The notes beneath the pieces were generated by a model. That model was not told where the DNA came from and did not search any database. It saw nothing but the letters and a program-made list of their open reading frames with translations. From Psilocybe cubensis (Eukaryota), in contig CM039008.1 of assembly GCA_017499595.2 (NCBI GenBank), positions 2,852,001-2,916,000 on the forward strand: a DNA stretch of 64,000 nucleotides, written 5' to 3'. Both the position numbers and the translations under genes were made by a program. Below, piece after piece: positions 5,741 through 60,029 of the stretch. Positions within the stretch are counted from its first letter, which is position 1. Each line of letters starts with the position of its first letter.

Positions 5741-6255
5741 CGATGATCTCCATTGATCGAATTTCTCTTGTTCCTTTGGTGTATTACTATGTTTCGAAGG
5801 AGTTTATCAAATGAAAATGGTTTTGGACAAGGACGACGCGTTATGTATTGATATGATGTGTGAGAGTATGGAAGATGGGTGGGCTTGGTGACCGACCTGA
5901 TACCAGATTAAAGGAGAGTTTATCAAAAAGATTTAGACTACACCTGGATTACTACGTTGGCCCGTTGGCCAAATGTGTTTCAGTTGTAAGTTTTGCACGC
6001 ATTATTCCCTGTTACCTGCGGCTGGCCCGGGCCAGCGTTAACTTTTTAAGGCAGAAACAGTGCAGCCACTGTGCATTTTGTGACAAATTTCCAATGTGGT
6101 TGTTATTTGCCTGTGCCTTGGTTGGTCTATTACAAGCTATAAAAGGGCGTGCATGGCAGGGATGCTGCTGTATTGGTTCATTTTATATCTTCTTCTAGCG
6201 GTCAATTGCAACAAATTTGAGGCTTTTGCTTTTCATTTCGCATAATAAAATCACA

Positions 6256-34521: not shown

Positions 34522-36138
34522 TTAAATATCAGAATCAGATATGTTGGCGAGGTCATCATGGATGGCTCCAGACTCAAATTCAACTTCAAAATCAAGCTCA
34601 CTAGCTAATGCTCTCCATGACGCAGCTTCCTCCACTGACATAATGGAAATGTCGCGACTCTCAAAGGAAACTTTCTTGATGGGCATCGCGTGATCCTTCC
34701 GAGACCTAACAAATTGGTATATCTCCTGTGAGTCTAACGGCTCGTAGCGCTGCCAGTCGTGTACGACAATATTGCAAACAGATGGGAAAAGATTCAAACT
34801 ACCAAGATTACCTTCTTGGTGAATTTGTTCCGCTTCTCTGATGATTTGGAGGGTCTTTGCGTCGGTTTCTAGAGTGTTCACGTTCTTGAAGTGATTGAGA
34901 AAGGAGAGCATGGAATCGCTGGGTGATGGTAGCTGATGTACTGCCAAATGAAGTTTTGTAGTCGTCGAAATAGGATCCACTAATCCAGATAATAACGCAG
35001 CATTGACCTGTGCGACAAATCCTGGCCAATTGTTCCCGTTGTTGGACAGAATGGTCTTAATGTCCTCCAAGGTTATGTCTAGGAATTGACGCCCATCATG
35101 TATGTTGAAGTGACCGTGATCACTCATCTCGTAGTAATGAAAGTTAGGGAAGGTACGATGCTGATAGGACTGATGTCGAAGAAACGTGGACAAGGCAGCA
35201 CCAATATCCAGGAAGTTTGTAACAATATCTGAAGATAAATCACGACTTTCATCCCAATCGTTGAAAATCAAGGAACAGTGTGGTCCAGGAACGATGTATT
35301 TCAATAATAGAATTATTGTCATGACGTTGGACTCAGTGATGCTGAGCCGGGAAAGGTTTGGAATTTGGACGGGAATTAAAGATTGGTCGACCTCATAATG
35401 GAAGAATGTATTCGTAATTCCTAATGTTTCGAGATGCGGTAGGAGTTTCAGACCACGTAGAAACTGTGAAGCAGTAAATTTGTCCACGCAAAGATCATGA
35501 AAGTGACGTAGGTTGTTGTACCAAGGATGTGCTGGGTCAACTGTAAGCCGGAAGCGTAGTTGAACCTCACGAAGAGCCCGGGGAGAAGTGCCAGAGAATA
35601 ATATCCCATCATCCATATCTTCAAAGGGTACATCTCCCTGAATACACAGTTGCTCAAGGTTTGGTGCAGGTCTTTGGAGGAGCTCTTCCCAATCAGCTGC
35701 ATCATAGAAGTAGTCATTTATAAGCAGCCGACGAATGCGCGCCCAGTTTTCATCCAGGAAAACTTCCAGGAAATCACGCATACACTCCTTATCTGATACA
35801 ATTCTAGAAATTGTGCCTACCACAGTAAGCAGACAGTTGCCTGTCCTTTTGACAACCTCATTGCGCCAGTTATCATTCCCACCTGCTAGCAATTCTAGAT
35901 CCAGAGAGTTGGCCCAGAGAGTCGGAGATGAGAGAATCAAGCGACGCCATTTATGGCATACTTGAGAACTCTTACGTGTAACAGTCAATGGCGCAGACGC
36001 ACGGTCCAGGCTTGACATACCCAAGCGGGGGCGGCCAGGGATGAATGAATCTGCAGAATTTGCGTTGAGTGAAAAGATGTAGAACAGGATATCTTCGTTG
36101 AGGTGGAGAAAGGGGAGTGATCGAGCTACTGGTGTCAT
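34522..36138 (-). CDS. Single-exon F-box / LRR(RNI)-like protein, copy B
   Basis: 538-aa ORF colinear with copy A (APLTVTRK.SQVC..W..LILSSPTLWA, RPAPNLEQLCI, QSYQHRTFP, LETDAKTL.IIREAE). Confidence 0.85.
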   Translation of the reverse strand: MTPVARSLPFLHLNEDILFYIFSLNANSADSFIPGRPRLGMSSLDRASAPLTVTRKSSQVCHKWRRLILSSPTLWANSLDLELLAGGNDNWRNEVVKRTGNCLLTVVGTISRIVSDKECMRDFLEVFLDENWARIRRLLINDYFYDAADWEELLQRPAPNLEQLCIQGDVPFEDMDDGILFSGTSPRALREVQLRFRLTVDPAHPWYNNLRHFHDLCVDKFTASQFLRGLKLLPHLETLGITNTFFHYEVDQSLIPVQIPNLSRLSITESNVMTIILLLKYIVPGPHCSLIFNDWDESRDLSSDIVTNFLDIGAALSTFLRHQSYQHRTFPNFHYYEMSDHGHFNIHDGRQFLDITLEDIKTILSNNGNNWPGFVAQVNAALLSGLVDPISTTTKLHLAVHQLPSPSDSMLSFLNHFKNVNTLETDAKTLQIIREAEQIHQEGNLGSLNLFPSVCNIVVHDWQRYEPLDSQEIYQFVRSRKDHAMPIKKVSFESRDISIMSVEEAASWRALASELDFEVEFESGAIHDDLANISDSDI

Positions 36139-36849
36139 CGTGATTTGTTACTTTTCACAATCGTGAGTAGGCGCCTAAAGTGTGTTGCTTATTTACCGTT
36201 GGATGGATAGATAAAATGAGTCAATACAGCAGTATCCCTGTCATGAACGGTATTTTATATTCTGGAGTAGGCCAACCAAGGCATTTTCGTATAACGACAT
36301 GTTTGTAAATTCTGGACAAAGCGCGGAGTGGCCATACTGTTTTTGCCATAAGCATAGAAATTAGAGATTGGCTGTTGTTGGCCCAGCCGAAGGTGGCAGC
36401 AAACAAAGCGTGCAAAACTTGAACTGAGAAAGATCAAGTTAACGGCCTAAATTCAACTTCCACACAGGTGGACCGAATGCTACTGTTTGAGTTATCTGGT
36501 CAACGTCCAGTTCCACCCGCAAATTGCGTCATAAACCCGGCGTTGAGCGGAGAAGATTGACATTCAAGCGGACAAGGGGGACTTACAGGTATGAATGATA
36601 ACACTATAGGCAGCAAGTTGTTTGGAGGAAGAATTGAATACTTGAGTGATTAAATGTTTCATCTGCCCTTCCCAGGGTCAATAAAACCAGAGAGAACAAT
36701 CAGACCTCGATGTTATGCCAATAACTCAATTGAGAAGACGCCGTTATGACTATAAAGTACCCATCCCATTGTGCCAGATACAATTGCTTGACAAAGATAT
36801 ATTCACCAGTGGCTTTCCATAAATCAGAGATACTAATGAGCTGTTATAT

Positions 36850-37656
36850 AAAATGTATATTAATTATGGTCTAATGTTGAAATAGGCTGACAAAAGGGAG
36901 TTCAAACCGATCTTTAAAATTATGAAGGACATGTTTCTACCATGATAATACCATTTCCTAACCCCGTTTATAATACTAAACACCACCAATAAACTCAGTC
37001 AGGCATGAAATGTGCACAGACCTTGCCTGGCCCAATAACTAAATACCATAACCTTCTTCAAACATCTTCAGCTTCAGCCAATGCCCTACTTTTATTAAGT
37101 CGATCGATTGACTAGAAAATATGTATTAGTAGTGGGCACTTTCTACAGGTGTAAATACAGACACGCACCCCAGCTTCAGACTGCTCCATCTTCACCTGAA
37201 TTGCTAGTATTGTCGACTGCAGGGTGCTTACTGTCGACTGTAGGGTGCTGACCGTCGACTGCAGGGTGCTGACTGTCGACTGCAGGGTACTGAGAGCGGC
37301 GGTGGTGTCTCTCTTGTATATGTCAAAATTCTGGCTAAAGGCCTGAAACCAGGCTGGCGCTGTTTCTAAAGGGTAATCATTATGGTAACTCGGTTTCGCT
37401 GCAAAGAGGCTTTAATACCTGCACGGCCAGCCTCTTGCGCAGCCTCTGTATACTTTTCAACGGCCAGCAAAGCAGAATCAAATATTCTGCTGGCTGCCAA
37501 TTCGTCTATAGCTGGCACTAAGCATAGTTAAACTTGTGTAAGGGATGTATCATCGTAACGGGTCGCGAGGCACATACTTCGAGCGCTATCAATATAACCG
37601 TCCAAAGAGACCATGGCCTCCCCAAATTGAAACACTTTGCTGGTTGGCTCTGGCAT
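36850..37656 (-). pseudogene. Small multi-exon coiled-coil protein gene with a (STLQSTV)x4 heptad repeat; probably disrupted
   Basis: MPEPTSK.. | MPAIDEL.. | ETAPAWF..STLQSTV repeats (21-bp unit at 37210-37292) | SIDRLNKSRALAEAEDV-TGA. Downstream exons unreadable. The copia is inserted 54 bp upstream of the ATG. Confidence 0.55.
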
Positions 37657-37709
37657 AGACGATGATTTTACCGTTTCTTAGAATATAAAGTGATTTGGTA
37701 ATGGGCGGG

Positions 37710-37967
37710 TGAAGGAAACTGAACACGAAATGAGTCTCAACTCAGCTGAAGGAATCAAAGGCTTATATATTGACCTGAACACGAAATGAGTCTCAACTAT
37801 AAACTAGGTCAGCTACTTTCTACGAGTAACAGAATAAGAATGTACCTCAGCTGAAGGAATCAAAGGCTGAGGTACCGAGGCAGAAAGTAGCGAGTATAAG
37901 TGAAAAATTCGTAGCTGAAGAAGTTGATCATGGTCAAGGGAAGGTGATGCGTTGTACTAAAGTGGAA
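37710..37967 (-). repeat. Copia 3' LTR, distal part
   Basis: Matches 58587-58844 with one difference seen (cacgaaat vs cacaaaat). Confidence 0.95.
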
Positions 37968-38271
37968 CACATAAGACAGTTTATTTATAACGTACATTAC
38001 CTAAGATTTAATAATAAGGATATTACGTGAGACACGGTGGATTTACTCCCGCTACCTAATTAGGAGATTAGCGTGATGTACGTGTGATTTATCCTGGCAA
38101 ATCATAGCGTACATGACGTGCCATTTAGCACTAAATGGAGCCGCCGGGTGGCATGCGGGATCCGCGTGTCGGGCTGCACGGGAAAAACACGGGCCGCAAA
38201 TGAACCGGACGGGTCCATCTACATCCCGTGTATTGCAAGCAGACGGATCCGTTTTGACCCGTGTTGTGCTG
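37968..38271 (+). repeat. KDZ left TIR (304 bp)
   Basis: Reverse complement of 53333-53636; no mismatch seen by eye. Confidence 0.95.
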
Positions 38272-38412
38272 AGACGGGTCCATTCATCCACCCGCTTCTG
38301 TATTCCGACAAATATCCGCCTTGAAGAATCATACATCGGATGACCGTTAATATATGTAATAAGGTGTATAGATTATACTGGCAGCACATTCCTTTCCACA
38401 TACCCTGATAGC

Positions 38413-39692
38413 ATGGATTATGCCTTTGAGCTAACCCAATCCCTCTCAAACTACATGAAGGCACAAATAGCTAGTCGTCTTTGGCATGCAGAACTGCCTA
38501 ATCAAATCCGGGAAAACTTCAGTGCTGAGACCATGTTTGAGTGCAATCTAGCTGTGGAGGTGATTTTGCAGGCATTTGAAAATCAAGGTATGCAATCAAT
38601 AAGCTTTGAAAATTGAGATTAAATAATGTGTGAATGGCAGAATATACGACGTGGGATGCAGAAGAATATTTGACTCATCTCAGTGCACGTTGCACGGGTC
38701 AGAATTTTACCGTTGAGGCTCGCCTGAAAGACAAGTTTTCTCCGGTGCATTCCGCGTTACAGTACCAAACCCTGCCCGGAACTGTGGTCGATAGTGCAGG
38801 CAACATATTGGTGTGGTACCTGCCAGGTATTTTGTCAGAGACAAGGGTGGTGAGTTTTAGAAACAGACCAATTAATTCATATATTATGCTTTCTAAAGAG
38901 TAACAGGAGAGTGTGTGGAATTCATTACGGGATATTGAAACAATGATTCACAAGGCGGTACCTTTGGCCACAAGCTGGAGGGTCAATGACAGTTACTTTC
39001 GACATGAGCCAGGTTGGGTTCAACCTGGAAATATTAACTTCTCCCCGGCATGGTTTCAGCAAGGCCATGAGGTGAGAAACTTGTATGCTAATTATTATAC
39101 TGCCTCATATTTTCCTCAGACGTCCAACCCGCTTGAGGTCTCCTTGGACTTGTGTAATCCAATTGGACAGGAGTTTATACGAGACACGACGACATCTTCG
39201 GCTTTGCTGGGAGCCATCTTGAGCATTATACATCCCGAGCAGTACCGGGCGGGAATGAAATTTCTTCAACGGCTTGCTGCGGAACCGGAGCTTGTCCATA
39301 AGGCTGAAATATTGAAGCAAATTCTCACAATTTGGAGTTCGCCCTTTGGAGTCATGACCGTGATCAGCAACCGAGATACACCATACCATCGGGATAATGG
39401 GTCGTGCTACTCATGGTACGATTTTTTGATGCCGCTTGGGAAGGGTGAACACGGACGGCTTGAGCTTCCGGGCCTTGGACTTCGGTACAAGTATGATCCC
39501 ATGACCCTTGTTGCAATTACCGGCAGGTTGCTTCAACACGGCGCGGTGTGCGATGGAGACAGGGCAGTCATAGTCTATTACATGCGTAGGACTGTATTTG
39601 AAGAGCTGGGAGTCCAAGAGGCGGGATGGTCTACTACGTACGATCTTTTTGCAAATTTACCGGCCACCAACGCTTTTGATTTTGAAATATGA
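38413..39692 (+). CDS. TET: TET/JBP-family 2-oxoglutarate Fe(II) dioxygenase (4 exons, apparently intact)
   Basis: VVDSAGNILVWYLPG; PGNINFSPAWFQQGH; HxD in ISNRDTPYHRD; LELPGLG; distal His and Arg in GRLLQHGA..GDRAVIVYYMR. Location in a KDZ element matches known fungal TET/JBP genes. Confidence 0.9.
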
Positions 39693-39919
39693 TCAGTTTT
39701 TGACTTGGAAGTTGGGTTTGGGGAAGATTTTTTTATATTTCCAAACCAAAACAGTACGAAAGCTACAGCACAACCAGAATTCTCTGTCCCAGGGTGTTTC
39801 CGACGCGTCCGCGCTGAGCTCTTCCAAGGTTACCGGAATCATCGGACTCCGCCGTCGTATTACCGGCGGAAAAGGCATCATCCGCCTCCTCTTCGATGTC
39901 CTGTGCGAGAGGTGGGCAA

Positions 39920-41544
39920 CTAAGATTCCTCATCCCAGGGTGTTTCCGACACGTCCTCGCTAAGCTCTTCTGAGTTACCGGAAGCATCTGACTCCTCCGT
40001 CGTATCACCGGCGGAAGACTCCTCATCCGCCTCCTCTTCAAAGTCCTGTGCGAGATGCTCTAAAAACGTAGCTGGTGTAGAGGATTCAGTGGTATCAGAC
40101 GTACTATCAATATCATCCTCTTCTCCCGGGAAAACAGGTCTTGACCTTGCGTTAAAAAGGAAGGCATTGCTGGTGTGTGCATTTGACGGAGGGCTGACGG
40201 AACCGGGCGTAGGCAGAGTATCTGTTGGGAGATGAATATTTGCAGTGTTGGAGGGTGGCGAATGATACCAGAGTGGATGAAAAGGTAGTTCCTTGACGGC
40301 AATAAAAGAATAAAAAATGTCGTTGATGTAAAATGAAGCGACTTTGAGCTTTGAGACCTCGAAGGACCGGGCTTGAGCCGTTATAGCGCCCCAACTGTCA
40401 GGAGAAGGGTGAACGGGATGCTGAAATTTGTATTTGGCTGAAAGCCCCTTGCCGTTAGAGAACGGGAGCTCCTTAGAGTCAATCCACATCTTCTCCAATA
40501 CAGAATATCTGCCCAAGGCGACCGAAGAAGTAGTCACTGCTTTATGGGCATTCTTCATTTTGTCCGCCACATTCCGGCGCAGGTGAGCCAACTCCCTCAT
40601 TACGCCCGTTAGGATAGGCTGACCGCAGCGGGGACAGTAGGGCGGTCTGTGGTCAGAAATTGCAATTGGGGATGTTTCATCCCGCGTGTTTGCAACACGG
40701 GTCGGCGGATTGGGTTTCCCCGTGGGCGGTGAAAACGCGGAGCCGTGCTTTCCCGTCAACGCGGATCCGTGCTTCCCCGAGGTGGGGACGGATGTCCGTT
40801 CAGCCGCCTTTCCCTTGCCCTTGGGATTGTTTTCTTGATTTCTTGGAGGCCCAGAGGTGGATGAACTTGCGCCCTCCTTAGCTTCTTTCCTCTGATTGTT
40901 TAGCCGGAGTACCTCTTGTTGGTATTCAGGCAGAACCACCTGGTGGGAAGGACGCAAATCAGATATAATCCACAGCAATAAAAAAACATACCTTGTTCCA
41001 AAATTCTCTTGCTTGCGATTCAACGGTAACAAAGGCAACTTGCCACTCATCGCCTTCAGCAAATCCGTCCCTCCACCAATATCCCCAGCTCTTGGTCTGA
41101 TTTAAAATTTCATCATCTTCCCATGCTGACCAGCTTTGATTTAGAGATTCAAATAGAACAGCTCGATGGTGGGGAGTTCGGTTCAAAACGGCATGTACGC
41201 TCTGATTGAGAATTTCTGATATAAAAAATGGAATATCGACTTGGAATCCATTGACATAGCAGTATCCGAGTACTCTCAGCAGTATAGCCTATCGAGCAGT
41301 TCTCAATGCAAGATATAATAGTTCAAAATTACTGTCTTACCACCTCTAGGTCAAGCAAATACATCCATTTTTGGCGACGCACGGAGGAAACAGAGTCTCC
41401 GTTTGCAATGAACAAACGGTATCCGGCACGGATCCGTGCACCACAAATATGGACATGAACTTTGGCCAGAGCACGTCGCTCATCATAGGTAAGGAGATGA
41501 TGTTCGTCCTCGACAGGAGGTTTAAAAAGCCGCGGTAAGTGCAT
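39920..41544 (-). CDS. KDZ cargo protein of unknown function (CxxC motif, acidic C-terminus; multi-exon)
   Basis: MHLPRLFKPP..LLDLE | ..SWSAWEDDEILNQ..EFWNK | VVLPEYQQ..YCPRCGQP..EEEADEESS..WDEES. GT-AG introns. Start codon uncertain. Confidence 0.65.
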
Positions 41545-41588
41545 GAATTCAACAAGATGAGATACAACAAGAATGTTCAAAGAACTGG

Positions 41589-44500
41589 TTAATCTGTAAT
41601 TATAAATCTCCACACGGACGGATACTCCGGGTTAATTTGACGGAAGACCTTATCCGCGGCCCGCCCCAGATCATTCCACATGGCAATCTGCTTTTGAGCA
41701 TTTGCCCTGTGACCAACTAACCTGTCAGGAACAAAATCATGCCGTGCACGCCATGTCTTTGCCATATACACATAAAATCTGACAGTCCATTCCATTTCCT
41801 TTTTTGTCAAGGCCAGCTCCTCTTGCCATCTATTCCTCTGAGCTCGCGCGCGGAGCCAGTTTAGCCTAAAGACTAAGAAGCCCTTGAGAAAAAAATTAGA
41901 AATACAAATAGCAGTACTCACACTCATTAACGTATAATTGATTATCATTGTCCAGGCCCTGACGGGATCTCCAAATCCAACTTAGACGGTCCGAGCTTCC
42001 TCCGCAAATGTTCGGATCCGACACGGCATTACTATGCTTGCAATCATGGACTTGCAGAATGGGATATTGTTTCCGAATATTATCCTCGTCTCGCACGCCA
42101 GCAGATAAATAGATCATCTTCTGACGGTTTGTGTTGTAGAGTCGCCGGTGCAATTTCCAGGAAGCATTCAAAAGCTTGACGCCATCCCAAGCACGAGTCC
42201 CCATATAGACGGAGTCGGCGGTCCGAACCTGATATTTATACTGCCAAGAAAGCTGGATCAAGGCTGACCGGACCGCTTCCAGACAGTCCTCTGCGTGGCC
42301 ATGTCTTATTTGAAGTTCAAGTTTGCGAAGCCCTTTTAAAATGAGGTTTGTTCCCGCGTCAAGGCCGTCAAAGAAATCTTGTTTGACGGCGGAGGGAAAC
42401 GGAAGCGGCTGTCGTTCCGGATCCGCGCGGGTAATGTTGACATTTCCAAGATCAGGATCGTCGTTGTCACTGACTTCATAGTCAAGTATGGGAGCGATGT
42501 CCCCTTGAATATCCTCCAAGACATCTTCGCCCATGAAGGTCATAGCGGATCGACAGAAGGCTTCAACGCGGGTCCGCATGGAGCGACGTTTATTGACCAA
42601 GTCAAGTTTCTGCGCGGTGGAAGGATGCTTTCCGAGCTTTCTGACATGGTCCCTGAGCTCCAATCTAAAAACATGTTAAATTCTGTAGGATGCAATTGAA
42701 ATAATCGTACTGCGCTTGCTCCAGTTTTAAGCCGGATGATATCCATGCTGCCTTTCCAGTAGCACCATTAGATGTAAGTTCCATATTTGAAAGATGCAAT
42801 TCAATTTCTTGGCGTCCAGCAGCCGTTTTCACTTTGCTTGCCATTACCTTGCCAACAGCGTCGGCCACACCTTGTTCTCGGTCCGCTTCTGCTTTTGAAA
42901 TTTCATCTTCCCAAGTGTTGATGAGCCCGGAATCTTGTTGATCCGTGATACCCCTATAAAATCGGTCTGTGATTCCGGACTGTTCCCGTGCCCGTTTGAA
43001 CTTTGCAGCAATTGTTGCAGCCATATTAATGGTCTTCTTCCAGTTGGAATCCCCCATGTGGTCGTCCAAAACCTCTGCTCAATGGGCAGTGGTAGCGGAA
43101 CGTGTACTCCGGGATGTGTCATTTAACACGGACCACAACGGCTCCAGGATTTCTCCGTCAATGATTCCCACACCCGGGACATAGGTGGATGCGTAGTTGT
43201 AAAGACATTCCGTCTTGTGCCCGTGGACGTGAAATAAACCAATTGCAAAAATCATTTTAACAGAAGGTGGCCAATGCATTTTTGTGGACTCTGAGAGACG
43301 CCTTGCCAAGTTAACGCAATATTGACAGTTTATATCGTAGATTTCCAAATGTTTTGTGATTCCCTGTGTGTTGGTAGTTTCCCTGGCCTGAGTCAAAGAC
43401 CAATCCATGTGCATCTGCTTTTCACCTTTGTCAAAATCGACAACGCTGGATGGACAGAAGCATCCGTGCCTAGCGCAAGCGTGTGCCCCAATTCCACGTA
43501 CTCTCTTACCCGGGCTGACTCTGTTTTCAGCTTTCTGGGCGTGGTAGTTATGACATGTTTGTTCCTGATATTTTTTGACACGGAAAGTAAGCATCCGCCG
43601 TAGAAGATTTTGACACGGAGCGTAAGCATCCGCCGTGAAAGATAAATCATGGTAGATAACGCACCCGTTTATAACGTGGAGCAAGAGAAATTGCTTCCTT
43701 AATGTGCTCCTTGTAAGGGCCCGGAGCAGTCATGTATCCTTCTCCAACGCTCAACCAAACATCGTCTCCCTCGTTTTTCTGATTGAGGTGATCTGCTTTG
43801 AAATTACCATCTGCAACATAACTACGTATGTACAGATTGCTACTTGCTGTTAATTGCAGTCACCCTTGAAGAATAACTAAAACTTGCCTATCAGCATCAT
43901 CAATCCAGGTATCAGGTAGGTTTATTCCAGGCTGTGGACAGGCGGGGCAGAATAAGGCCAACTTCCCTCTCCTATCTTCAACTTCGGGATGATCCTCGGT
44001 CCGCGTCATTTGTGGTACAGGCGGACCATCTAATCCGCCGTGTCCCAGAGACGGGTCCGTTGACATTCCGACTTCTTGAGACGGACTATCAGATCCGCCG
44101 TCAATTGGATCAGATACATTAATACCCATCCTCTCTGGTGATGAATCATGGCAATGACGATAGTAAGGGACCACCGCTTCTCTTGTATGCCCTTCTCCGT
44201 ATTGTCGTCTCAGGACAAGGTCCCTGTATTCTCTACTAAGCCTTCTCAATTCACGATAGCGGTTCAGCACCTTTTTTGGAAACGCTGGCGAAGTCAGTCT
44301 TCGCAACTTTTGGTAATACTGATAAGCCGACGTTTTGCACTCGAGGTTGTCCATCCGAAAGTCCTCAAGGACCTCAACTGTGAACACAGTTTGAACGTTT
44401 TCAAAGCTGGCTGCAAATAATCCCATCTCCAGATACTGTAAATCGATAGACGGAAGGCGGACGGACCGGCATGTGCATGTTCGCACGGGCAGATAATGGA

Positions 44501-45472
44501 CTCCGGAGGTGTGCACAATTGCCTTGAAAGGAATTCCATTGTTGTCTGCTGCCTTTGGACGAGGTTGGTCCAGATAGGTTGTATCGACTTCCTCGAATAG
44601 ATCATCGTCTTCATCGTCTCCATCGTCCAGCTCAACCAAATGGGGTACCTCCGGGTCCGCCAGAAGCTGAGCCGTAAAGGATTCTTGGTCATTGCTCGCA
44701 GGAAGCGGATCCAGGTCCAATCCGTGTTCATCTTCAAAGACGGGCGAATTGTTTCCGCCGTGCCCATGACTCCCGGATGAATTGTTTCCGCCGTCCCATC
44801 CTAGGTGGCTCGGATCCGTGGGATAAGGACAACGTTTCCCATTATGACCCAAATACAACTTGACACCCACTTCCCACAGAGCTCCCGGACGGAAATATAG
44901 ACCCGTCCACTTCTCAACGCGGTGGAAAGGTGTAAATTGATGGTTTCTTCGCAGGCATTCAGAACACAAAATTCTAGAGCCAAAGCATTGGCAACATCTC
45001 CACACTCCAGACATTCCTTGACATTGCTGACACTGTCCATTCAGATCCGGATCCGGGGCTTCTCCTCCAATCATTGTTCCAAGATACACCTCTCGTTTCG
45101 GGAGCCATTCCCTCAGGTAATCATTTTGAGACTGGATAGGTAAAGTCATCCTGATCATTCTACTGAAAACATGTTAAAACATACCTTTCCTCCCGTTCTG
45201 TCGTCATCTAGCTGTCTCAGGTTATCAAGTACCTGCTGATCAGTTAGATCTCCCGGATAATGAGGTATTTCTTCTTCCAGAATGTTGTGTTCATGGTTTT
45301 GGAAAGAGTAAGTCGTTGTTTGAGGGAGGTTTGTTGATGATGATTCTGCAGGAAGTTTGTGGATCCTCGGCCGCCCTCTCTTTCGTTTCTTGGCCCCACT
45401 AGACCAGGAGGCCTCCCGAACATTGGGAAACTCCTCATCCGATCCCCTATCAGGTACTTTCTTGAAGCCCAT
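41589..45472 (-). pseudogene. CxC2-KDZ transposase (about 6 exons) with one premature stop at 43079-43081
   Basis: CQQC..CCQC..CSEC..H..PFHRVEKW; VHTSGVH..CTC (CxC2); LFCPACPQPGINLP; DGNFK; CARHGCF..VDFDKGEK; YDINCQY; FHVHGH..C; DGEILEPLWS; H-TGA-AEVLDDHMGDSNWKK; NWLRARAQRNRWQEE. Confidence 0.92.
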
Positions 45473-46351
45473 GGATGTTGGAAACAAAGAGTCTGACAGC
45501 CTGTGAGCGCAGATCTAAATGTAGTATAACATGTTTATTTCTGTAGATAAATTTCCCTCAATTATGCCGTTTTAAAGAGGAGAAAAATAGCTTTCATATG
45601 ACTTATCTTGCAGCATATTTGGATGAGTGAGTGAAATGTTATGAACAAAACTTAATCCAGAGATGCACAAAATGGACGTGATCCCATCATAAATGTACAA
45701 TATGATGCAGAACGACCCTTTCAGAACCACACTTTGGAGTGTTTTTGAAATATCTTTTCACTGGCTGGCCCCTCATTCCTCCGGCGTATATCATATGAAA
45801 GATATTTTTAATAGCTACCGAATGACATTTTTTGTAGAATGTGAATCCTCGTATTTAAGGAGATATTCTCAATATACTAGAAAATGTGTCAAAATGAGCT
45901 CACTGGGATCATTATATTTTTTGAAAAAAATTATGCATTTGAATACCTCTCATGGTCTCTGAGATGACTGCCGTTTTGGGTTTCACAAGTTTTGGGTGAG
46001 AAGACGTGAATTTGCATTTTGTGTTTCTGTATCTTTACAGCCATCTGACAAGAATTTAAAACCTTGTAAAATTATCTTTATATAAAGCGCTAAATGTTTA
46101 CAAAATTCCATGTTTATTGATTGAATGCAGAGGGAACTATTGCAAAATCATGAGGTCAATGTATGTGACAGCGACCAGCATGCTTTGATCATCGTGGCCG
46201 ACGATGAAGCGGGATTACCTGATTGGGAAAAATATGACATCACATCATTTATTTAGTATGATCGGAAGCTTATTTTATCTCCGTATAACGTGAGATTTGA
46301 CCAGATCACACAGATACTCATCGATAAGCTACTTGTTACATCACTGCAATT

Positions 46352-48662
46352 ATGCCCACCAATGCATCCCCCGACGCGGATCCGCTTCCTTCTACCGCAA
46401 ATGCCACAACCCACAACGGACCCAGAAACGGACAGACGGCGGAGGGTGACTTTCCGCCGGAAGAATCAAATATTTGGACAACAAAGGAAATGCGCGTGTT
46501 GAAAAAGCATGTACAGCCCTACAAAGATACATCAAAGTCATCCAAAGCAGACTACATACAGAACACTGTCATACCTGAGCTGCAAGCTACATGGGATCAC
46601 AGATACTCTAGACGTGCTAGGAAGGAAGATAAGCAACTACACAAAGAATGGAAGGTGAAGAAGCATGTGAGCTCGTTGTTTCTTTGAAAATTTTGTTACA
46701 CACATAAACCATCACAATAGCGAATATTTAATTGGTTTAGAAACCATGCGTCAAATCGAATTGGTGTAAAATTGGAAGGATTGAACTCCCGTATAACCTT
46801 TCAGACGGTATTCCGTGAGGAGAAGTCGGCAGAGATTGACTCCGAGGTTGCGCTTCTATCAGGGAATGCTGCTCGTGGAAGTAAAGATTGGATGAAGTTT
46901 TATCAACAAGGACGTAAGCAGGTTGAGGCCAGATTGACTCAGGAGGAGCGGGACAGGTTCATGGAGATCCTCGAGGAATGGAATAAGAAAGGTGTTTCAA
47001 AATCAATGAAGGCAAAGTGAGTCGGTGGAACTTGTTTCCGCCGTCAATCTGACATCTGCAGGACTGCTGCCAGGCAAGGCAGAAAAATACTTCGACAAAT
47101 GGAGAAACTTAAGTGGCAGAGAATGGGTATGAGGTCCATTACCTTTGAGGGGCATTATGATATTGAGGGTAAAATCGAATACTCAATGTAAGTGTTAAAC
47201 ACGGCATGAACAAGTTCCGCCGTGAATGCTTACGGCGGAAACTTTATCCGCCGTAAACACCCTACGGCGGATAAAGTTTCCGCCGTAAGCATTCGCGGCG
47301 GAATAATTTGGCCCGTATTAATGTTGACTGATGGGCATTGAAGGACCCAGACAAGCGATCTAGCACTCGACGATGTCAGAATTCCTTCCTTTGGGCAACT
47401 CTTTCCATCCGAGTTGGCCGCTTTTCGCAGAGCGTTTGTTCAATACCTCGTCCACATTTCAGAAATAGAGAAGGGTGTGGCCAATCCAGCACTGCCAGAT
47501 GCATCGTTTCATGAAAAATCCCTCAAGTTTAGCAGCAATGGATTTCCAATAGTACCTAGTCCTATCTATGGCTCAACTGGGAGAGAAGTCGCTTATGCAC
47601 AAAAGTCAATTATTAGAATTTACATGAACAAGGTTTATGGTGTGTAATTTGTCTATGTCCTCAACAAACTTGCTAACTATGTATACAGCTTTAGCCAAGG
47701 ACAGGCCTGGTTCAAGTGTTCCTTGGGATGCTCTTGAAAGGCGTTCTGCAGAAATGATTGATCCAGAGTATTGGCCAAGTTCAATCCCCGTGACGGATCC
47801 GAGCCGGCTCCGCCTGGAGTCAACCTCTGCAATTCTCAAGCTATGGAGGGACCGTCAAGCCCAAGGAGACATCCCCTTTAAATTTTCAAAGGTTTTTGGA
47901 AATGGCTATGATATTATGGAACCTCTCTATCCGTCCAACTTGTTTGACGGCCTAGAAGCCCACCCGATACCTCCACCTCCTGCAGCAATAACCAAACGTC
48001 GCCTGAGGCAAAAAGCTATACGACTTCAAACCCAATCTTCAAGCGACTCTGAATCATCCAATCTGTCAGAGTTTGATAATGGACGGGGCAGTCCGGCATC
48101 CGCGATGCCACGCACTACTGCCAGATTTGAAGTCACGCCAGAGACGGATGAGACTCCTACCGACGCACCTTCAAGATCTAGCGAGCCACCCTCTCTACCA
48201 AGTAGATCCAGCCCAACAATTGTCAATCCATCATCCAGCCCAACTCCAGAGGTTGAGGAGGCGCCTCCCAAGCCAGCTAGAAAGATTATGCCAAGAAAAA
48301 GAACAAAGCCATATGTCGGAACGGCGGAAATGGACGGACCCGATGAAGAGAGTTCTGTACCCCCCCCAGTTAAGCCAAAACCAACTAGAAGGATTCAACC
48401 TAGGAAAAGAACAAAGCCCTACTCAGATCCACTTGACACAGTGGAAGAAGATGGAGTCCAAACAGGAACAACCCAAGACACGGATAATACACGGGCCGGC
48501 AGGGACGTGACTTGTGATGCCTTTGTGGAGACAGTAACAAGTCCAGATACGGATGAAACACGGGCCCGCAGGAATGTGACTTCGGATGCCTTAGCACTTC
48601 AGGAAGCAAGTCTGCTTGCTGTAGCAGGTAAAAGACAAAGAAAAAAAACTTTGAAAGCCTAG
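46352..48662 (+). CDS. KDZ-associated nuclear protein with helical/HMG-like N-terminal domains and an S/P-rich basic tail (5 exons)
   Basis: WTTKEMRVL..RIFNWFRNH; WMKFYQQGRKQVEARLTQEERDRFMEILEEWNKKG; VPWDAL..IDPEYWP..DPSRL; NLS-like KRQRKK. The HMG label rests on resemblance plus the known TET-transposase-HMG gene linkage. Confidence 0.7.
47215..47303. repeat. Intronic palindrome with 41-bp arms and a 7-nt loop, built from CCGCCGT motifs
   Basis: ttccgccgtgaatgcttacggcggaaactttatccgccgta-aacaccc-tacggcggataaagtttccgccgtaagcattcgcggcggaa (1 mismatch). Confidence 0.93.
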
Positions 48663-48927
48663 CTGTTGAAGTAGATTCATGATACCTATTGAATGTGATG
48701 CTTTTTATTCTTATCTTGATGTTTCTCAAACATGTTTTCACACAAAATCAAAACAGAAAGCGGGTTCATTAAAAATCATCAAGTGCTACTTTTTGGGAGA
48801 GATATAAAACAGATGAGCACATGAGAGTAAAAACTATATACAGTCCAAATATTAAAAATTGTACAATGCAATCTATGAGACAAGGCAAAAAAGGAGACCA
48901 AAAAAAGTTACAAAGATTTGAAATACA

Positions 48928-51505
48928 CTACTTTTTTTGGGCCTTGGGTTTTTTGGGCGAGCACGATGCTTCAGCCAGAGTCGTTTCCGCCTTTCGCTTC
49001 CGTCCAGCCCTTGTCTTTGTGGCTATGTTCGACGCGGGCAGCGTGGACGCCACGATCTCAACATCCTCCTCCACAATTTCAACCTCGTCGCTGTCCGAGG
49101 GATCAGACAACTCCGATGAGTGTCCATTCCCGGATGGCCCAGCCTTGGAGGATGGCTTAGCCTTTGACAATGGCTTAGCCTTTGAGGATGGGCCGGCCTT
49201 TGACGATGACGATGGCGCGGCCTTTGACGATGGTGCACCCTTTGACAACGGTGCGGCCTTTGACGTCGAACTTCGAGGACGTGGAGCTGGGAGAGGGGGT
49301 GGTGGAGACAGGGAAAGGACGGGTGGTACCGGTGGGAGCGAGGGTCGGCCAGCTGGGGGGGGCGAAGGCGCTTCTGGAGTCGAACCGGGCAAGAATAGCT
49401 CTATTGGTGGCGCAGACACGGCAGGGAAGACGGGTGCGGGTGGAGGTGGGGGTGGGGAAGGGAGGACAGGTGCTGGCGGTGGTGGAGGAGGGGAAGGGAG
49501 AATGGGTGCTGCTGGAGGTGGAGGTGGGGAAGGGAGGGGTGCTGGCGGTGGTGGTGGGCTGGGGGATTGTGGCGCAGAGGTGGGTTCACGGGTCCGCGAC
49601 GGACCCGATTCTTGTTCGACCTCCGTCTTGGAGGGTTCTGCTGCCTGTTTGGGGGCGGGATTCCTTTGTTCATCCTGCTCCAGCAAAACCCCGACCACGT
49701 ACTGAACGTCCTGGATCGCCTGCTTGATGTTGTTGAACATCGTGACGGAAAGCGAAGTGTTTCCTGCCACTTGTTCTTTTGCCGTGGTCCACTCGGCCTT
49801 CAGCTCTTGGAAGCTGTCCTCGACGGTCTTCATCCTCTTCTCCACCGCCAAGTTTGTCTCGGCGAACGTTGCAATCCGTGCGTTTATCGCCGTCATGGAC
49901 GCGGAAAGGCCATCCATCCGTTCCATCAGTCGGCCTTGTCGCTCAAACAGCTGCACAAGCAGCTCTCCCACATCCTCGGGGAACGACCCTTCCCCGGCCT
50001 TCCCCTTCGCCGGAACATCCTCTCCCTCCTCCAACTTCAACACCTCCCCGTAACTTCCCAGCGGCGTCGAGAGGTTGAATTGCCCGGCGACAGTGTTGCG
50101 TCCCGGGTAGAAACGTCCCGGGTAGAAACTGCAGTGAATCTTGCGAGACTTGCAAGACTCGCAAGATTGGTGCTTTACGGGGACGAGAGGCTCAGTGCCT
50201 GTCTCTCCCTTGACATGGCACGGCACCTTGAATTTGGTGCATCCCGTGCACCTTTCCACCATATCCACCATCCCCTCCGGCACCTGGCGCGCTTTCTCGG
50301 ATCTCGACCGCGCCTTCCTGATGGGGGGGATATTGTCCTGGTTGGCGTCCTTCTTTGCAGACCGGGTGAGCATCTTCCGGGTGGGGGTGGTAGGCGAGGC
50401 CTCTTGGTCATCGCCTTCGTCGTCCTCGTCGACGTCGGCGTCCGCGTCTTCGTCCGTGTGGCTTCCTATGATTGCTTTGCTCTTGAACTTCCCCTGCTTG
50501 GACTTCGCCAATCTTTCCAGCTTCTCCCTGTACGCTGGGTGACCAGGCATGTTGGAGGCGGTGATGTGGGGAATGATTTCCCCCTTCCTTGTCCGTGGGC
50601 CCCTGTAGTCCGCTGGAGCCAACTGAATGGACTCCACGGGGTCCGCCGCTTTCCGTTTGCCCTTGTCTTTGTGGGCGTCTGTCACGGGTCCGTCTTCCAC
50701 CGGGGGTTCGACTGCCTTGCCCTTGCCCTTCTCGGCCCGTCTCTTCTCCGTCTCCTCCTTGTTCCTCTCCTCGTCTGTCTCCTGCTCCTGCTCCTGCTCC
50801 CTCTTCCTCCTCTCCTCCGCCTTCTGCCTCTCCTGCTCCCTGGTCTTCCTCTCCTGCTCCCTCTTCCTCCTCTCCTCCTTCCTCCTCTCCTCCACCTTCT
50901 GCTTCTCTTCCTCCCTCTTCCTCCTCTCCTCCTCCCTCTGCCTCTCCTCCTCCTCCTCCCTCTGCCTCTCCTCTTCCTCCTCCCTCTTCTTCTTCTCCTC
51001 CCTCTTCCTCCTCACCTCCCTCTTCCTCCTCTCCTCCACCCTCTGCCTCTCCTCCTCCTCTTGCTCCTCCTTCTCCCTCCTCTTCTCTTGCTCTTCCTCC
51101 TCCCTCCTCTTCCTCTGTGCCTCCTGGCCTTGCTGGTATGCCTTGAAATTTGCGACTTGATGATGCAAATTTGCCCAGTCGACCTCGAACCTTGCTACCT
51201 GCTTGCCGTCCTTGCCCTGGCTGGTCTTGTATGAATACACGACAGGGCTTGCGACATAATCCACGAGGCGGAAGTTGGCCGCGTCCCTGACGTGTTCTTG
51301 ACACAGTGGAACCTATTTGGATGAATTTTTTTTGTTCAGTAAGTCTTATGCTCAAGGGATATCGATTACTCACCAAGTCCCTGTAGAGCTGCTCCAACTG
51401 AGCGTTGAACGCGCTTTCGCCATTGCGGTAGCACTCTGTAAAGGTTTTTTCCCAGTCAGCAAGGCGTTGGGCGAAGGTGGCGGTGGTGGAAGATGAAGAG
51501 GCCAT
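48928..51505 (-). CDS. KDZ cargo protein: E/R/K single-alpha-helix/coiled coil, Zn2Cys6-like cluster, coiled coil, polyproline, NLS (2 exons)
   Basis: MASSSSTT..LYRDL | intron ~51313-51373 | long ORF with CTGCTKFKVPC-x16-CESCKSRKIHC, then heptads (LMERMDGLSASMTAINARIATF), PSPPPPP repeats and PKKPKAQKK. Confidence 0.8.
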
Positions 51506-51734
51506 TGGGAAAGCGTTTTTTTTGGGGGGGAAGACGCGTTAATGGGTGAGGCACGGTAGAACGTGGGGTGGTGATCGTGGTTGGAGTTAGTCTAAAAAAA
51601 GTCTAAAAAAAAGCGGTCCCGCAAAACAAAACCATACACAAACATGTACAATCTGAGTCATGTGATTTCTTCACCAGATCCAGTTTGTGCAAAAGTTGCT
51701 AAGTTCGATACACGGGTGAATCTATTTCCGTGTC

Positions 51735-53239
51735 ATGGAGAATCCTAGGATAGTATTGTATTCCGTGAGATATATAAACAAGCCCACCCAGTTGCACTTT
51801 CTGGACTGTATGTCCTCCTACAACTTTATTCCCACCTCTAGCAAAAATTCCCCCATTGACTACACCAGTCTCAACAATCTTACCAGGCTTCTCGAAAAAC
51901 TGAAGGAACCTCCTCCCGTAAAACCTATAAAATGTAAGACTAATTGCATTAATTCAAGTAAATTTAAATTGATTTCTGAGCATCAGCAATGTCTTCAAAT
52001 ATTAGCAACTCTAAGGAAAGCAAACGCACAGCAAGGACGGATGACCTGGCTCCGCCGCCAATGCCAGTCATTCCAGATAACCTGGCTCCACCCCCTATGC
52101 CTGTTATTCCAGCTAACCTGGCTCCTCCCCCTATGCCAGTCATTTCATCTAACCTGGCTCCGCCCCCTATGCCAGTCATCCGGAAAGACCTGGCTCCGCC
52201 GCCAATGCCAGTAATTCCAGCTAACCTGGCTCCACCCCCTATGCCAGTAATTCCAGCTAACCTGGCTCCACCCCCTATGCCTGTTATTCCAGCTAACCTG
52301 GCTCCGCCCCCTATGCCAGTCATCCGGAAAGACCTGGCTCCGCCGCCAATGCCAGTAATTCCAGCTAGCCTGGCTCCGCCCCCTATGCCAGTCATCCGGA
52401 AAGACCTGGCTCCGCCGCCAATGCCAGTAATTCCAGCTAGCCTGGCTCCACCCCCTATGCCAGTCATTCCAGCTAACCTGGCTCCGCCGCCAATGCCAGT
52501 CATCTGGAACGACACGGCTCCGCCGCCAATGCCTGTCATCCGGAACGACTTGGCTCCGCCGCCAATGCCAATCATTCCAAATAACCTAGCTCCTCCCCCT
52601 ATGCCTGTCATTCCACCTACCCTGGATCCTCCCCCTATGCCTGTTATTCCAGATACCCTGGATCCTCCACCTATGCCTGTCATCCGGGATGATGCGGCTC
52701 CGCCGTTGATGGCAGCACATGTTTCATACACGTCTGTCGTCGACAAAATCATTATGGACTCTCGTCCAGCTATTTCCTCTGAGAGGAAGCAAGGTCGCTA
52801 TTCTCCACCCCCTGAAGCATGCCACCTGCTCCTTCAAAACCCTTATTTTCGAACCTACGGCAGGTTTGATCCCATGGGCGGCTACCCCGGTTCGCCTCCC
52901 ACCCAGTCTGACATTGAGTTCGAGAATGTAACAGATCAGACGGCGTATTTTAACCCTCCTTTTCTATATGTATGTACTCAGATATTACCAAGCACTAGAT
53001 ACTGACAACTATTTTAGAATTATACCGAGCAGCAGCTACGGGCAACATACGACCAAATAATTGACAGTTCCGTCGGCGACAGTAGTTATGACGGAAAGGT
53101 TACAACGTTCAAGAACCTCCGGCTGCATCAGCTGCAGTCAGAGATTCTGACTTATAATGCGCTGGAGGAAATTGACGCTGGGCTGGCAGGGATTGAATCG
53201 AGTTTGGAAAAGCATTTGTATACCGGTAGAGATGAATAA
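51735..53239 (+). CDS. KDZ cargo protein with a 12-aa Pro-rich tandem repeat (3 exons)
   Basis: Exon 1 to 51935 splices in frame into ORF 51989. (LAPPPMPVIxxx) repeats. Intron ~52969-53017; last exon ends YTGRDE-TAA. The start could instead be 51810. Confidence 0.75.
52040..52710 (+). repeat. 36-bp coding minisatellite, 18 full units plus 1 partial
   Basis: Consensus unit approximately aacctggctccgccccctatgccagtcattccagct. Confidence 0.95.
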
Positions 53240-53332
53240 ATTATTTTTGGAGCCCTTGTGCTCATTGACTTGCAATACCCCATAAATAACCCTCCCTCTC
53301 TGGGAAGACACGGGTCAAATGGGTCCGTCTGA

Positions 53333-53636
53333 CAGCACAACACGGGTCAAAACGGATCCGTCTGCTTGCAATACACGGGATGTAGATGGACCCGTCCGGT
53401 TCATTTGCGGCCCGTGTTTTTCCCGTGCAGCCCGACACGCGGATCCCGCATGCCACCCGGCGGCTCCATTTAGTGCTAAATGGCACGTCATGTACGCTAT
53501 GATTTGCCAGGATAAATCACACGTACATCACGCTAATCTCCTAATTAGGTAGCGGGAGTAAATCCACCGTGTCTCACGTAATATCCTTATTATTAAATCT
53601 TAGGTAATGTACGTTATAAATAAACTGTCTTATGTG
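53333..53636 (-). repeat. KDZ right TIR (304 bp)
   Basis: Reverse complement of 37968-38271. Confidence 0.95.
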
Positions 53637-53780
53637 AGTGGAAGAAGAGTTTCTCAGTCTGGAAGATGAACAGGGGAAATCGGCTCAACGACCCGATGAC
53701 GAGAAAGGAATCTTTGAGGATAAAACAGAAATAAAGGAGTGAAAAGAATGGAAAGGGATGAAAAAACTTGTATTCCAACA
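53637..53780 (-). repeat. Copia 3' LTR, proximal part
   Basis: Matches 58838-58981 with one difference (aaaaaactt vs aaaagactt). Confidence 0.95.
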
Positions 53781-58586: not shown

Positions 58587-58981
58587 TGAAGGAAACTGAA
58601 CACAAAATGAGTCTCAACTCAGCTGAAGGAATCAAAGGCTTATATATTGACCTGAACACGAAATGAGTCTCAACTATAAACTAGGTCAGCTACTTTCTAC
58701 GAGTAACAGAATAAGAATGTACCTCAGCTGAAGGAATCAAAGGCTGAGGTACCGAGGCAGAAAGTAGCGAGTATAAGTGAAAAATTCGTAGCTGAAGAAG
58801 TTGATCATGGTCAAGGGAAGGTGATGCGTTGTACTAAAGTGGAAGAAGAGTTTCTCAGTCTGGAAGATGAACAGGGGAAATCGGCTCAACGACCCGATGA
58901 CGAGAAAGGAATCTTTGAGGATAAAACAGAAATAAAGGAGTGAAAAGAATGGAAAGGGATGAAAAGACTTGTATTCCAACA
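58587..58981 (-). repeat. Copia 5' LTR (395 bp, intact)
   Basis: TG..CA ends; two internal direct-repeat pairs (ctgaacacraaatgagtctcaact and ctcagctgaaggaatcaaaggct). Confidence 0.96.
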
Positions 58982-60029
58982 GCGGGGAAGTTTGAATGGA
59001 TAGATGGTGGATGTGAGATAAGAAGAGCCAGGGGACTTGGGTCCCATTTAAAAGTCGTTGCAGACGCGTGACTGTCACATTTGAGGCAATATCAGCAAAA
59101 ATGTAAAATATATGCGCATCGAATGCACGTATATGCGCATTTACTCACAGTTCAAGTCAACAAGAACGTCTGTATGATCTAATTCCGTAGTTGTTAGAAA
59201 GAGACGAGCCAAATAGACGTGATGCTCACGGACCCCATATTATGTGCCATACCCCTTGCTAGCGATAACATACACACGCATTCATCGACGTGAGCGAACG
59301 TAGAGTTTCACGGAAACAAACACTTCAGTGGGGAATGAAGTATACGGAGCAAGTTTAAGACGCCCAAAGACCATCTGGAACGCTCCCATGTACTTGACAA
59401 GGCCACAAACGAACTCCGAGACTTATGGGTCGCCATGCAGCCGTTGCTCTGTTCCCGTACATGGACATCCATGGCGTGGGCGTCGAAGACTGCGTCGTGG
59501 TTCATAGTCATTAGTTCACTAGTTCACAGTTGTCTTAGAAACCTCAGGACGGAGCGACGGGGTATTGGACAGACCTGGTCTGACGCGGACAGAGGCAACT
59601 CAGACAACCACATCGAGTATGATATATTGATTTACCTCAACCACCTTACCCATCCGACATAAGGGTGTACTTCGCCCAGGGGGACAGACTTGTTACTGTG
59701 GTTCAACGGGCGAAGAACACGCCAACCGCCGCCGCGAGATTCCCATTGTCCTCCAAAGCTACATTCGTCCACGGTCTAGTTTACTCGTTGTTTTTGTGGA
59801 TGTTGGAGGCAGTGGTGAGGGGAAGATTGAAAGGGTGATATTCACAATTTTGGGAAGCGCTCAGGAAAGGCTCGGGGTATTCTTCTCCGATACATACTGG
59901 AACTTCGTAATGCAAAGGCGGTCAGAAAGTGATTTCGGATGTGAATTGTGGAAGAGAGACCTACGAAGTGGCATTTGCACCCCGAGGAACGGGTGAAGCC
60001 CATGAACATAAGCACCCGCATGAGCAGTA

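Follow-up and report, generated by a model that had tools for sequence, protein, structure and literature searches.

This analysis concerns a stretch of 64,000 nucleotides of Psilocybe cubensis DNA (contig CM039008.1, positions 2,852,001 to 2,916,000 of the forward strand), referred to throughout as the window, and in particular a large DNA transposon at positions 37968-53636. We read this transposon as an intact, autonomous copy of a Kyakuja-type element of the KDZ superfamily, a reading to which we give a probability of about 0.88. A preliminary description of the window had proposed that a complete, TET-carrying KDZ element lies here, and this is borne out by its exact ends, its terminal inverted repeats (TIRs), its target-site duplication (TSD), Pfam matches to KDZ, CxC2 and Tet_JBP, and its six genes. 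The element sits within one long terminal repeat (LTR) of a Copia-type retrotransposon, and the features that delimit it are the following.

37710-58981, minus strand: Copia-type LTR retrotransposon with a 5-bp TSD, GCGGG
37710..37960, minus strand: first part of the interrupted Copia LTR; the remainder is 53644-53780
37961..37967: left copy of the 7-bp TSD, AGTGGAA
37968-53636: the KDZ element, 15,669 bp, 48.7% G+C
37968..38271, plus strand: left TIR, 304 bp, 5' start CACATAAGACAGT; loose read ends exactly at 37968
53333..53636, minus strand: right TIR, 304 bp, ending CTTATGTG; loose read ends at 53636/53637
53637..53643: right copy of the 7-bp TSD, AGTGGAA
58838..58844: the target site still empty, with AGTGGAA present once, in the host Copia's intact sister LTR (58587-58981)

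The two TIR arms are 304 nt each and 100% complementary, with a mismatch first appearing at position 305, and the outer termini of the element read CACATAAG...CTTATGTG. The terminal 25-mer has two matches in the window, both of them the ends of the element, where 0.00 would be expected by chance; the terminal 34-mer had no match in a metagenome scan. Both halves of the interrupted LTR (37710-37967 and 53637-53780) match the sister LTR at 58587-58981, and on it the two matches overlap by exactly 7 bp (58838-58844), giving an empty site of the form ...CTAA-AGTGGAA-GAAGAG. Because the matches of the two LTR halves share exactly these seven bases, AGTGGAA is a 7-bp TSD, present twice at the element and once in the sister LTR. 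The coordinates given in the preliminary description are all correct. It had also taken the 7-bp TSD for a departure from the literature, which it is not: 7 bp is the published value for Kyakuja, and 8 bp is that for Zisupton (PMC12730594; here and below, statements that cite this paper, PMC11588098 or PMC7641404 refer to the sections covered).

Six genes and their copies

The genes of the element lie on both strands, as follows.

38413..39692, plus strand: gene 1, TET/JBP dioxygenase, predicted 389 aa, three exons (38413-38587, 38641-38849, 38907-39689)
39920..41544, minus strand: gene 2, 492 aa, exons about 41544-41380, 41288-40983 and 40945-39923; acidic C-terminus
41589..45472, minus strand: gene 3, KDZ transposase with an N-terminal CxC2 cluster, multi-exon, ATG at 45472 and stop at 41589
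46352..48662, plus strand: gene 4, 668-aa accessory protein, oriented away from the transposase with an 880-bp spacer between them
48928..51505, minus strand: gene 5, 838 aa, exons 51505-51371 and 51312-48931 (one intron); convergent with gene 4
51989..53239, plus strand: gene 6, predicted 400 aa, about 18 copies of the 12-aa unit LAPPPMPVIPxN and a non-repetitive C-terminus

This is the layout first proposed, in the order TET (+), unknown (-), transposase (-), HMG-like (+), Cys-cluster (-) and Pro-repeat (+), and the count of six stands, gene 4 being a single gene and not two. Tblastn with P. cubensis proteins set the exon boundaries of genes 2 and 5 and the extent of gene 4, and the open reading frames (ORFs) of genes 2, 4 and 5 as read contain no stop codons. 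These protein matches, taken by themselves, place the window in P. cubensis or a very close relative.

In gene 1, GT-AG introns of 53 and 57 nt were picked by the analyst on the sequence. The ORF at 38904-39689 (+) matches Pfam Tet_JBP (PF12851) at E = 9.5e-19, with 67.7 bits against a cut-off of 34.9. Compared with CcTet (structure 7vpn; E = 1.5e-27, residues 200-419), the protein aligns at HRD, the HxD motif, and at the distal His, which together form the 2-His-1-carboxylate triad. Ser stands at the position of CcTet Gly331 (+5) and Asp at that of Asp337 (+11); AG-type TETs borne by Kyakuja elements have HxD, Gly or Ser at CcTet 331 and Asp at 337 (PMC12730594), so that gene 1 has the residues of this type.

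The transposase gene carries the KDZ domain (PF18758) in the ORF at 43082-43729 (-), at 4.8e-33 and 115.1 bits (cut-off 26.6), and upstream of it, in 43863-45173 (-), the CxC2 cluster (PF18803), at 1.5e-21 and 77 bits (cut-off 27). A KDZ domain preceded by a CxC-type cluster is what defines membership of the KDZ superfamily, and in Pleurotus, too, intact KDZ transposases are preceded by CxC2 (PMC7641404). The Pfam scan of 27 ORFs found no other CxC type, CxC4 included, and no SWIM domain at E<=0.01. The first intron of the transposase gene is placed at 45184-45132 and the later ones only approximately.

Gene 4 is 99% identical to the P. cubensis protein P0005, and its matches there fall into two clusters, one of which has 22 members. 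Its relatives reach much further: a HMMER search of 1.84 billion representatives found 280 at E<=1e-3 and 46 at E<=1e-10, with the conserved residues lying at about 35-470. In an AF2 model made with 38 relatives, block means of pLDDT exceed 90 across most of residues 40-440 and dip to 70-90 in places. The architecture that emerges begins with a helical domain at the N-terminus, continues with domains resembling an HMG box (about 128-196) and GTF2I (about 296-428), and closes with a tail that is disordered, basic and rich in Pro. The window protein itself matches no Pfam family, and hence neither the HMG box nor GTF2I. Among its relatives, 5 of 37 give weak matches to HMG_box_2, the best of which, 2e-4, lies exactly at the cut-off, and 4 of 37 give sub-threshold matches to GTF2I (PF02946; 0.013-0.046), the homologue on metagenome contig L001 reaching 0.0028. 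The family profile run against the PDB places GTF2I repeats at ranks 1, 2, 4 and 5 of seven matches (E 0.012-0.44). Foldseek returned no row at E<=0.001, but of the 19 rows heading its list (to rank 20), 9 are GTF2I domains. In a VIA comparison with 48,161 chains the top two entries are GTF2I (Z 7.2, root-mean-square deviation 3.8, 89/90 residues on 296-428; and Z 6.6), and HMG boxes come next with eight entries (Z 4.5-5.4), aligned on model residues 122-212 except that two of the alignments stray to about residue 646; the tool warns that Z values of this size are common for helical domains.

We read gene 4 as encoding a probable HMG-like domain followed by a probable GTF2I-like domain, on evidence that is convergent but sub-threshold. 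The label 'HMG-like' first given to it is tentative: weak Pfam matches of five relatives and fold matches at Z 4.5-5.4 point to it, and the window protein itself has no such match in Pfam. That gene 4 belongs to a wide family, with 280 representative matches and with a predicted HMG-like and GTF2I-like domain pair, is new here; no paper linking GTF2I to KDZ was found in the searchable literature.

Gene 5 is likewise almost identical to a P. cubensis protein, P0001 (99% by BLASTP, 98.7-100% per tblastn segment), and its matches form three clusters, all from P. cubensis. Its design comprises a stretch rich in E, R and K, then six Cys clustered as CX2CX6CX18CX2CX6C, a long helix and, at the end, a basic tail rich in Pro. 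The AF2 model is poor (mean pLDDT 51; the cluster is below 50), although the long helix after the cluster reaches 79-91. A complex prediction of the homodimer with Zn scored 0.11 and 0.10 against a mark of 0.32, and the Atlas gave leads only, at 0.85, 0.83 and 0.82, the third being an automatic 'Zn(2)-C6' cluster. Fungal Zn(2)-Cys(6) clusters have the spacing CX2CX6CX5-12CX2CX6-8C and are followed by a dimerising coiled coil. The gap between the third and fourth Cys is X18 in gene 5 and X14 in its L001 homologue. Gene 5 falls short of the Pfam family Zn_clus (PF00172) at E 0.28, with 11.8 bits against a cut-off of 21 and only profile positions 1-14 matched, and the name 'Zn-cluster' that it had been given is at best tentative.

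A locus search with a six-sequence alignment returned three metagenome contigs, L001-L003, of 3.2-6.0 kb. With protein identities of 94-97% they are one family, and they count as one independent lineage, not three. In each of them a homologue of gene 4, 26-38% identical, precedes an ORF in convergent orientation; this ORF can be aligned with gene 5, the pair scoring E 2e-4. The gene-5-like ORF shares the six Cys in register, the motifs LxTPLG and VGELLV, a coiled-coil-like stretch, a Pro-rich region and a basic tail. The convergent pairing of gene 4 with gene 5 therefore predates the Psilocybe family. Its recurrence in a distant metagenomic lineage, as judged from these alignments, is new here. 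On the three contigs there is no significant match to the transposase, to TET exon 3 or to gene 2, and neither of the CGG motifs described below. Positions 1-420 of L001, upstream of the gene-4 homologue, hold some three tandem repeats of a unit of approximately 137 bp, and this repeat may be an element end.

The remaining two genes are those to which no role can be assigned. Gene 2 corresponds to an annotated P. cubensis UniRef protein, P0004 (99% identity by BLASTP, 96-99% per tblastn segment; one cluster). It has no Pfam match and no Atlas lead, and in one word-based search every match was from P. cubensis. The acidic 3' end of the gene lies in a 145-bp tandem duplication (39787-40055, 1.8 copies, 87% matches) that sits between the convergent TET gene and gene 2. 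At its other end, the annotated start of gene 2 is 45 bp past the transposase stop on the same strand (41544-41591), and gene 2 may be co-transcribed with the transposase or be an alternative splice product. The gene 6 model, which is the analyst's own prediction, contains the 36-bp-period repeat at 52040-52683 and one predicted intron of 48 nt (52970-53017).

How widely these genes travel with the element can be gauged from reads. A 10-kb query stretch is contained in 13 runs from 5 studies. In the raw whole-genome shotgun run X14, from a related strain, depth was counted over reads at least 90% alike. The summed depth is 24-38 in four bins of the flanks and 29 in the interior of the Copia. 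It rises to 454-637 over 38320-48943 (TET, gene 2, transposase and gene 4), is 230-415 over 48944-51599 (gene 5 and the spacer), and is 474-570 over 51600-53591 (gene 6 and the right TIR). Overall the element has roughly 18 times the depth of the flanks. Each of the six gene regions is thus multi-copy, the extra-gene regions at about 7-18 times flank depth against about 15-20 times for the TET gene and the transposase. Four further open genes are carried by most copies. The preliminary description had allowed that the three extra genes might prove to be one-off captures; by X14 read depth all three regions are multi-copy.

Of 56,519 reads aligned, 28,358 are at least 99% alike and a further 21,151 are 95-99% alike. 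In X14, 209 reads have loose ends at 37968, where consensus agreement is 0.39, and 187/222 reads have them at 53636/53637, where it is 0.38/0.40. The low agreement of the flanking bases (0.38-0.40) at the exact termini points to many further copies in different flanks. A joint from 37960 to 53637, which skips 15,676 bp and at which 7 letters fit either side, occurs in 43 X14 reads; it is no proof of polymorphism at the locus, because the sister LTR or other LTR copies may supply such reads. The copies vary in several ways. Some have a 997-bp deletion in the TET gene (27 reads), and a minority has a motif-bearing 39-bp addition at 43584 (143 X14 reads, plus X1 and X5 contigs). Roughly half of the reads lack one 63-bp arm of the palindrome at 47215-47303 (X14 joints 47214 to 47278, 138 reads, and 47232 to 47296, 125 reads), and the 36-bp repeat of gene 6 shows changes of 72, 144 and 288 bp, all in frame. 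The family, at about 18 times flank depth, looks young and recently active.

A young family could carry sequence that does nothing for it. It is possible, though we think it unlikely, that the element is indeed Kyakuja but that one or more of genes 2, 5 and 6 is a passenger or a spurious ORF, captured or low-complexity sequence that plays no part in the life cycle of the element and is retained only because the family is young. The matches of genes 2 and 5 are confined to P. cubensis proteins (one and three clusters), no Pfam families are found, and gene 2 lacks even an Atlas lead. Genes 5 and 6 consist mostly of low-complexity repeats, the strand opposite the gene 6 repeat is also open, and the copies are too alike for conservation among them to say much. 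However, a distant homologue of gene 5 aligns at every one of the six Cys, shares its general design and lies, likewise convergent, beside a gene-4 homologue that is only 26-38% identical. The ORFs are all intact and their introns canonical, and the repeat-number variants of gene 6 are multiples of 36 bp that keep the frame.

Dispersed CGG motifs and a possible mechanism

Two short CGG-based motifs are enriched within the element, an observation that is new here, and two repeat structures carry the first of them.

47215..47303: palindrome with 41-nt arms and a 7-nt spacer, in an intron of gene 4, holding five TCCGCCGT/ACGGCGGA sites
43573..43643: 35-bp tandem unit in two copies, with TCCGCCGT, in a probable transposase intron

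The first motif, TCCGCCGT or its complement ACGGCGGA, occurs 18 times in the window against 1.0 expected (shuffle maximum 6), and 17 of the 18 sites are inside the element, often paired as the dyad CGGCGGA-N7-9-TCCGCCG. In an unbiased count of 8-mers with tandem repeats masked it comes first, followed by a second motif in the forms CGGATCCG, ACGGATCC and CGGACCCG. The second, as the pattern CGGRYCCG, occurs 19 times in the window where about 1 is expected, with 18 sites inside the element, one of them in each TIR; the inner part of the left TIR has CGGRYCC-type motifs at 38158, 38210, 38244 and 38275. Markov simulations of the element gave means of 0.37 and 0.70 for the two motifs at order 1, and of 1.68 and 1.17 at order 3, with a maximum of 5 in 200, where 17 and 18 are observed. 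The sites are on both strands, in several reading frames, and in exons, probable introns and the non-coding TIRs, and motif-bearing units have been gained or lost among the copy variants.

Two simpler origins for the enrichment were rejected. One is CpG content: the observed/expected ratio of CpG is lower in the element (0.80) than outside it (0.87-0.92), and the order-3 simulations fall far below what is observed. The other is a repeated peptide of which the motif would be a by-product: six sites encode x-D-P, and one falls within (T/R)DPSR, which is conserved in gene 4, but the rest, in other frames and in the non-coding TIRs, are not accounted for by a peptide.

The way in which the parts of the element might work together can be sketched. 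The RNase-H-fold KDZ transposase would bind the TIRs, excise the element and reinsert it at a 7-bp staggered cut, and the TET enzyme would oxidise 5-methylcytosine on the element and so counter silencing by methylation, as has been proposed for Kyakuja (PMC12730594). Gene 4, with its HMG-like and GTF2I-like domains, may be a DNA-binding accessory factor, and gene 5, with its six-Cys cluster and long helix, a conserved partner of gene 4. We interpret the CGG motifs, each of which contains two CpGs, as putative binding sites for an element-encoded protein. Candidates are gene 5 with its six Cys, gene 4 with its HMG- and GTF2I-like domains, and the CxC2 module of the transposase. A more specific proposal, offered as speculation against which the odds are long, is that the element has an addressing system in which about 35 ACGGATCCGT-like and dyad sites bind an element protein that recruits TET in cis. 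Demethylation would thereby be directed to copies of the element itself, whose methylation state would be sensed through binding, with the gene 4 / gene 5 pair as the reader and TET as the eraser.

The host retrotransposon and the surrounding window

The LTRs of the host Copia are 395 bp each, begin and end with TG..CA, and differ by 2 mismatches once one TSD copy is taken out. Gag, pre-integrase and RVT_2 ORFs are detected, and the pol ORFs appear to be split by two in-frame stop codons, to judge by abutting stop-to-stop ORFs. A contig from run X16 has three short GT-AG joints on the minus strand and is therefore a spliced transcript. It passes from 37709 directly into the sequence of window positions 58987-59016 (30/30 bases), so that the Copia is missing in that strain, where the target is exonic sequence of a gene that is expressed. 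Nothing from X16, presumed to be an RNA run, aligned to the KDZ element, and no RNA run was listed as containing it; neither result bears on expression of the element. The order of nesting is thus host gene, then Copia, then KDZ element.

The flank at 35000-37709 differs from X1 and X5 contigs, which are without the Copia insertion, by 84 substitutions and 5 gaps over 2.7 kb. About half of the X14 raw reads have alternative bases in this flank, and X14 therefore contains two haplotypes or alleles. Two mutually related ORFs with no Pfam family, at 6199-7803 (+; 534 aa) and 34522-36147 (-; 541 aa), are inverted with respect to each other, with arms 77% complementary at a distance of 29 kb; the second is possibly part of the gene that the Copia interrupts. 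Positions 25000-28000 of the window have a GC skew of about 0.5, an AT skew of about -0.38 and long overlapping ORFs on both strands with no Pfam families, and look like low-complexity sequence. Ordinary host genes bound the repeat-rich region, one with a HECT ubiquitin-ligase exon at 30449-31081 (+; 5.1e-25) and the other with a cytochrome P450 exon at 62228-62977 (-; 3e-22).

Kyakuja among the KDZ elements

Complete TET-carrying Kyakuja families were described by Kojima (Biology 2025; PMC12730594) from five orders of Agaricomycotina. Kyakuja was delimited in December 2025, with 7-bp TSDs and CA..TG termini (section 3.2.1) and consensus lengths of 9-31 kb (Table S1), and two Laccaria families, Kyakuja-1_LB and Kyakuja-2_LB, are described as having no TIRs. 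Psilocybe has no occurrence among the species of Table S1, and the sections covered do not describe Kyakuja accessory genes or the targeting of TET. Every Kyakuja feature that can be tested is found in the present element, except the descriptive 'no TIRs'. It is a new Kyakuja family in P. cubensis, of known type and set apart by its long perfect TIRs.

Those TIRs are what might suggest a different branch of KDZ, whether Zisupton, Dileera or one that has no name, with the 7-bp TSD as a family-specific quirk. Long TIRs are found in Zisupton (as cited in PMC12730594) and in KDZ1 of Cryptococcus neoformans, which is of the Dileera clade (236 bp; PMC11588098), and not in the Laccaria Kyakuja families. 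KDZ1, which has been seen to transpose, resembles the element further in being a giant KDZ of 10.9 kb with extra ORFs that have no known domains. However, KDZ1 has an 8-bp TSD and a CxC1 cluster and no TET (PMC11588098), and Zisupton has an 8-bp TSD and CxC4 with SWIM, whereas the Psilocybe element has 7 bp, CxC2 and no SWIM, so that it does not fit Zisupton. Its terminal CACATAnnnCAGT and its TET domain resemble, by eye, the Kyakuja consensi, above all Kyakuja-1_LB. Another branch is therefore very improbable.

An assembly artefact or composite, in the form of two elements head to head or a collapsed repeat, is scarcely credible: perfect 304-bp repeats at about 18 times flank depth are conditions for assembler error, and no single X1 or X5 contig spans the whole stretch, but the LTR halves and TSD fit the sister LTR to the base, the X1 pieces listed (8 of the 155 contigs aligned) are collinear on 38755-52076 with 0-5 differences each and a largest hole at 49688-51565, and loose read ends fall only at the two termini and at the known indel variants.

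Several points weigh against assignment of the element to Kyakuja as an intact, autonomous copy. The placement depends on the TSD, the termini, the type of TET and CxC2, and the 7-bp TSD is demonstrated for one insertion only. The 304-bp TIRs are at odds with the description of the two Laccaria families. The models of the TET, transposase and gene 6 genes are predictions of the present analysis, and we infer TET activity and the roles of the accessory genes from sequence. Word-based searches with genes 2 and 5 matched P. cubensis proteins only. Over gene 5 and the spacer between genes 5 and 6, depth reaches only 0.4-0.75 of the transposase value, which may reflect copies that lack this part or have diverged there, or G+C bias.

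Read as Kyakuja, the insertion can serve as a reference, its ends being exact, its six genes intact and its empty site present within the window, in a mushroom that is cultivated and genetically tractable and in which the family looks recently active. It shows that long perfect TIRs occur within Kyakuja, that genes other than those for transposase and TET accompany most copies, and that the gene 4 / gene 5 pair is older than the Psilocybe element family. The two short motifs and the three candidate DNA-binding modules provide a handle on whether a TET-carrying transposon targets its own DNA. If the element does not do so, an ordinary new family entry for the repeat library remains.

CcTet of Coprinopsis cinerea is the best solved relative of gene 1 and the metal-binding residues are aligned, but Gly331 is replaced by Ser in the Psilocybe protein, whose activity is a prediction. 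For gene 4, the predicted domains superpose on the GTF2I-like repeat of TFII-I / GTF2IRD1 and on the HMG box, and sequence matches to both recur below threshold; no match of the window protein reaches a curated threshold, however, and DNA binding is putative.

As a whole, the element is closest to the TET-carrying Kyakuja elements, such as Kyakuja-1_LB of Laccaria bicolor. Common to both are a 7-bp TSD, CA..TG termini, a KDZ transposase and an AG-type TET, and a length of 15.7 kb falls in the 9-31 kb class. Eight of the Kyakuja consensi start with CACAT, as the element does, and by eye its first 13 bases fit a start of CACATAnnnCAGT. By eye again, the subterminal motifs of the consensi are of the GGGCC type, whereas here they are CGGRYCCG and ACGGCGGA, which also extend across the body of the element (PMC12730594). 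Besides transposase and TET, the Psilocybe element carries four accessory genes.

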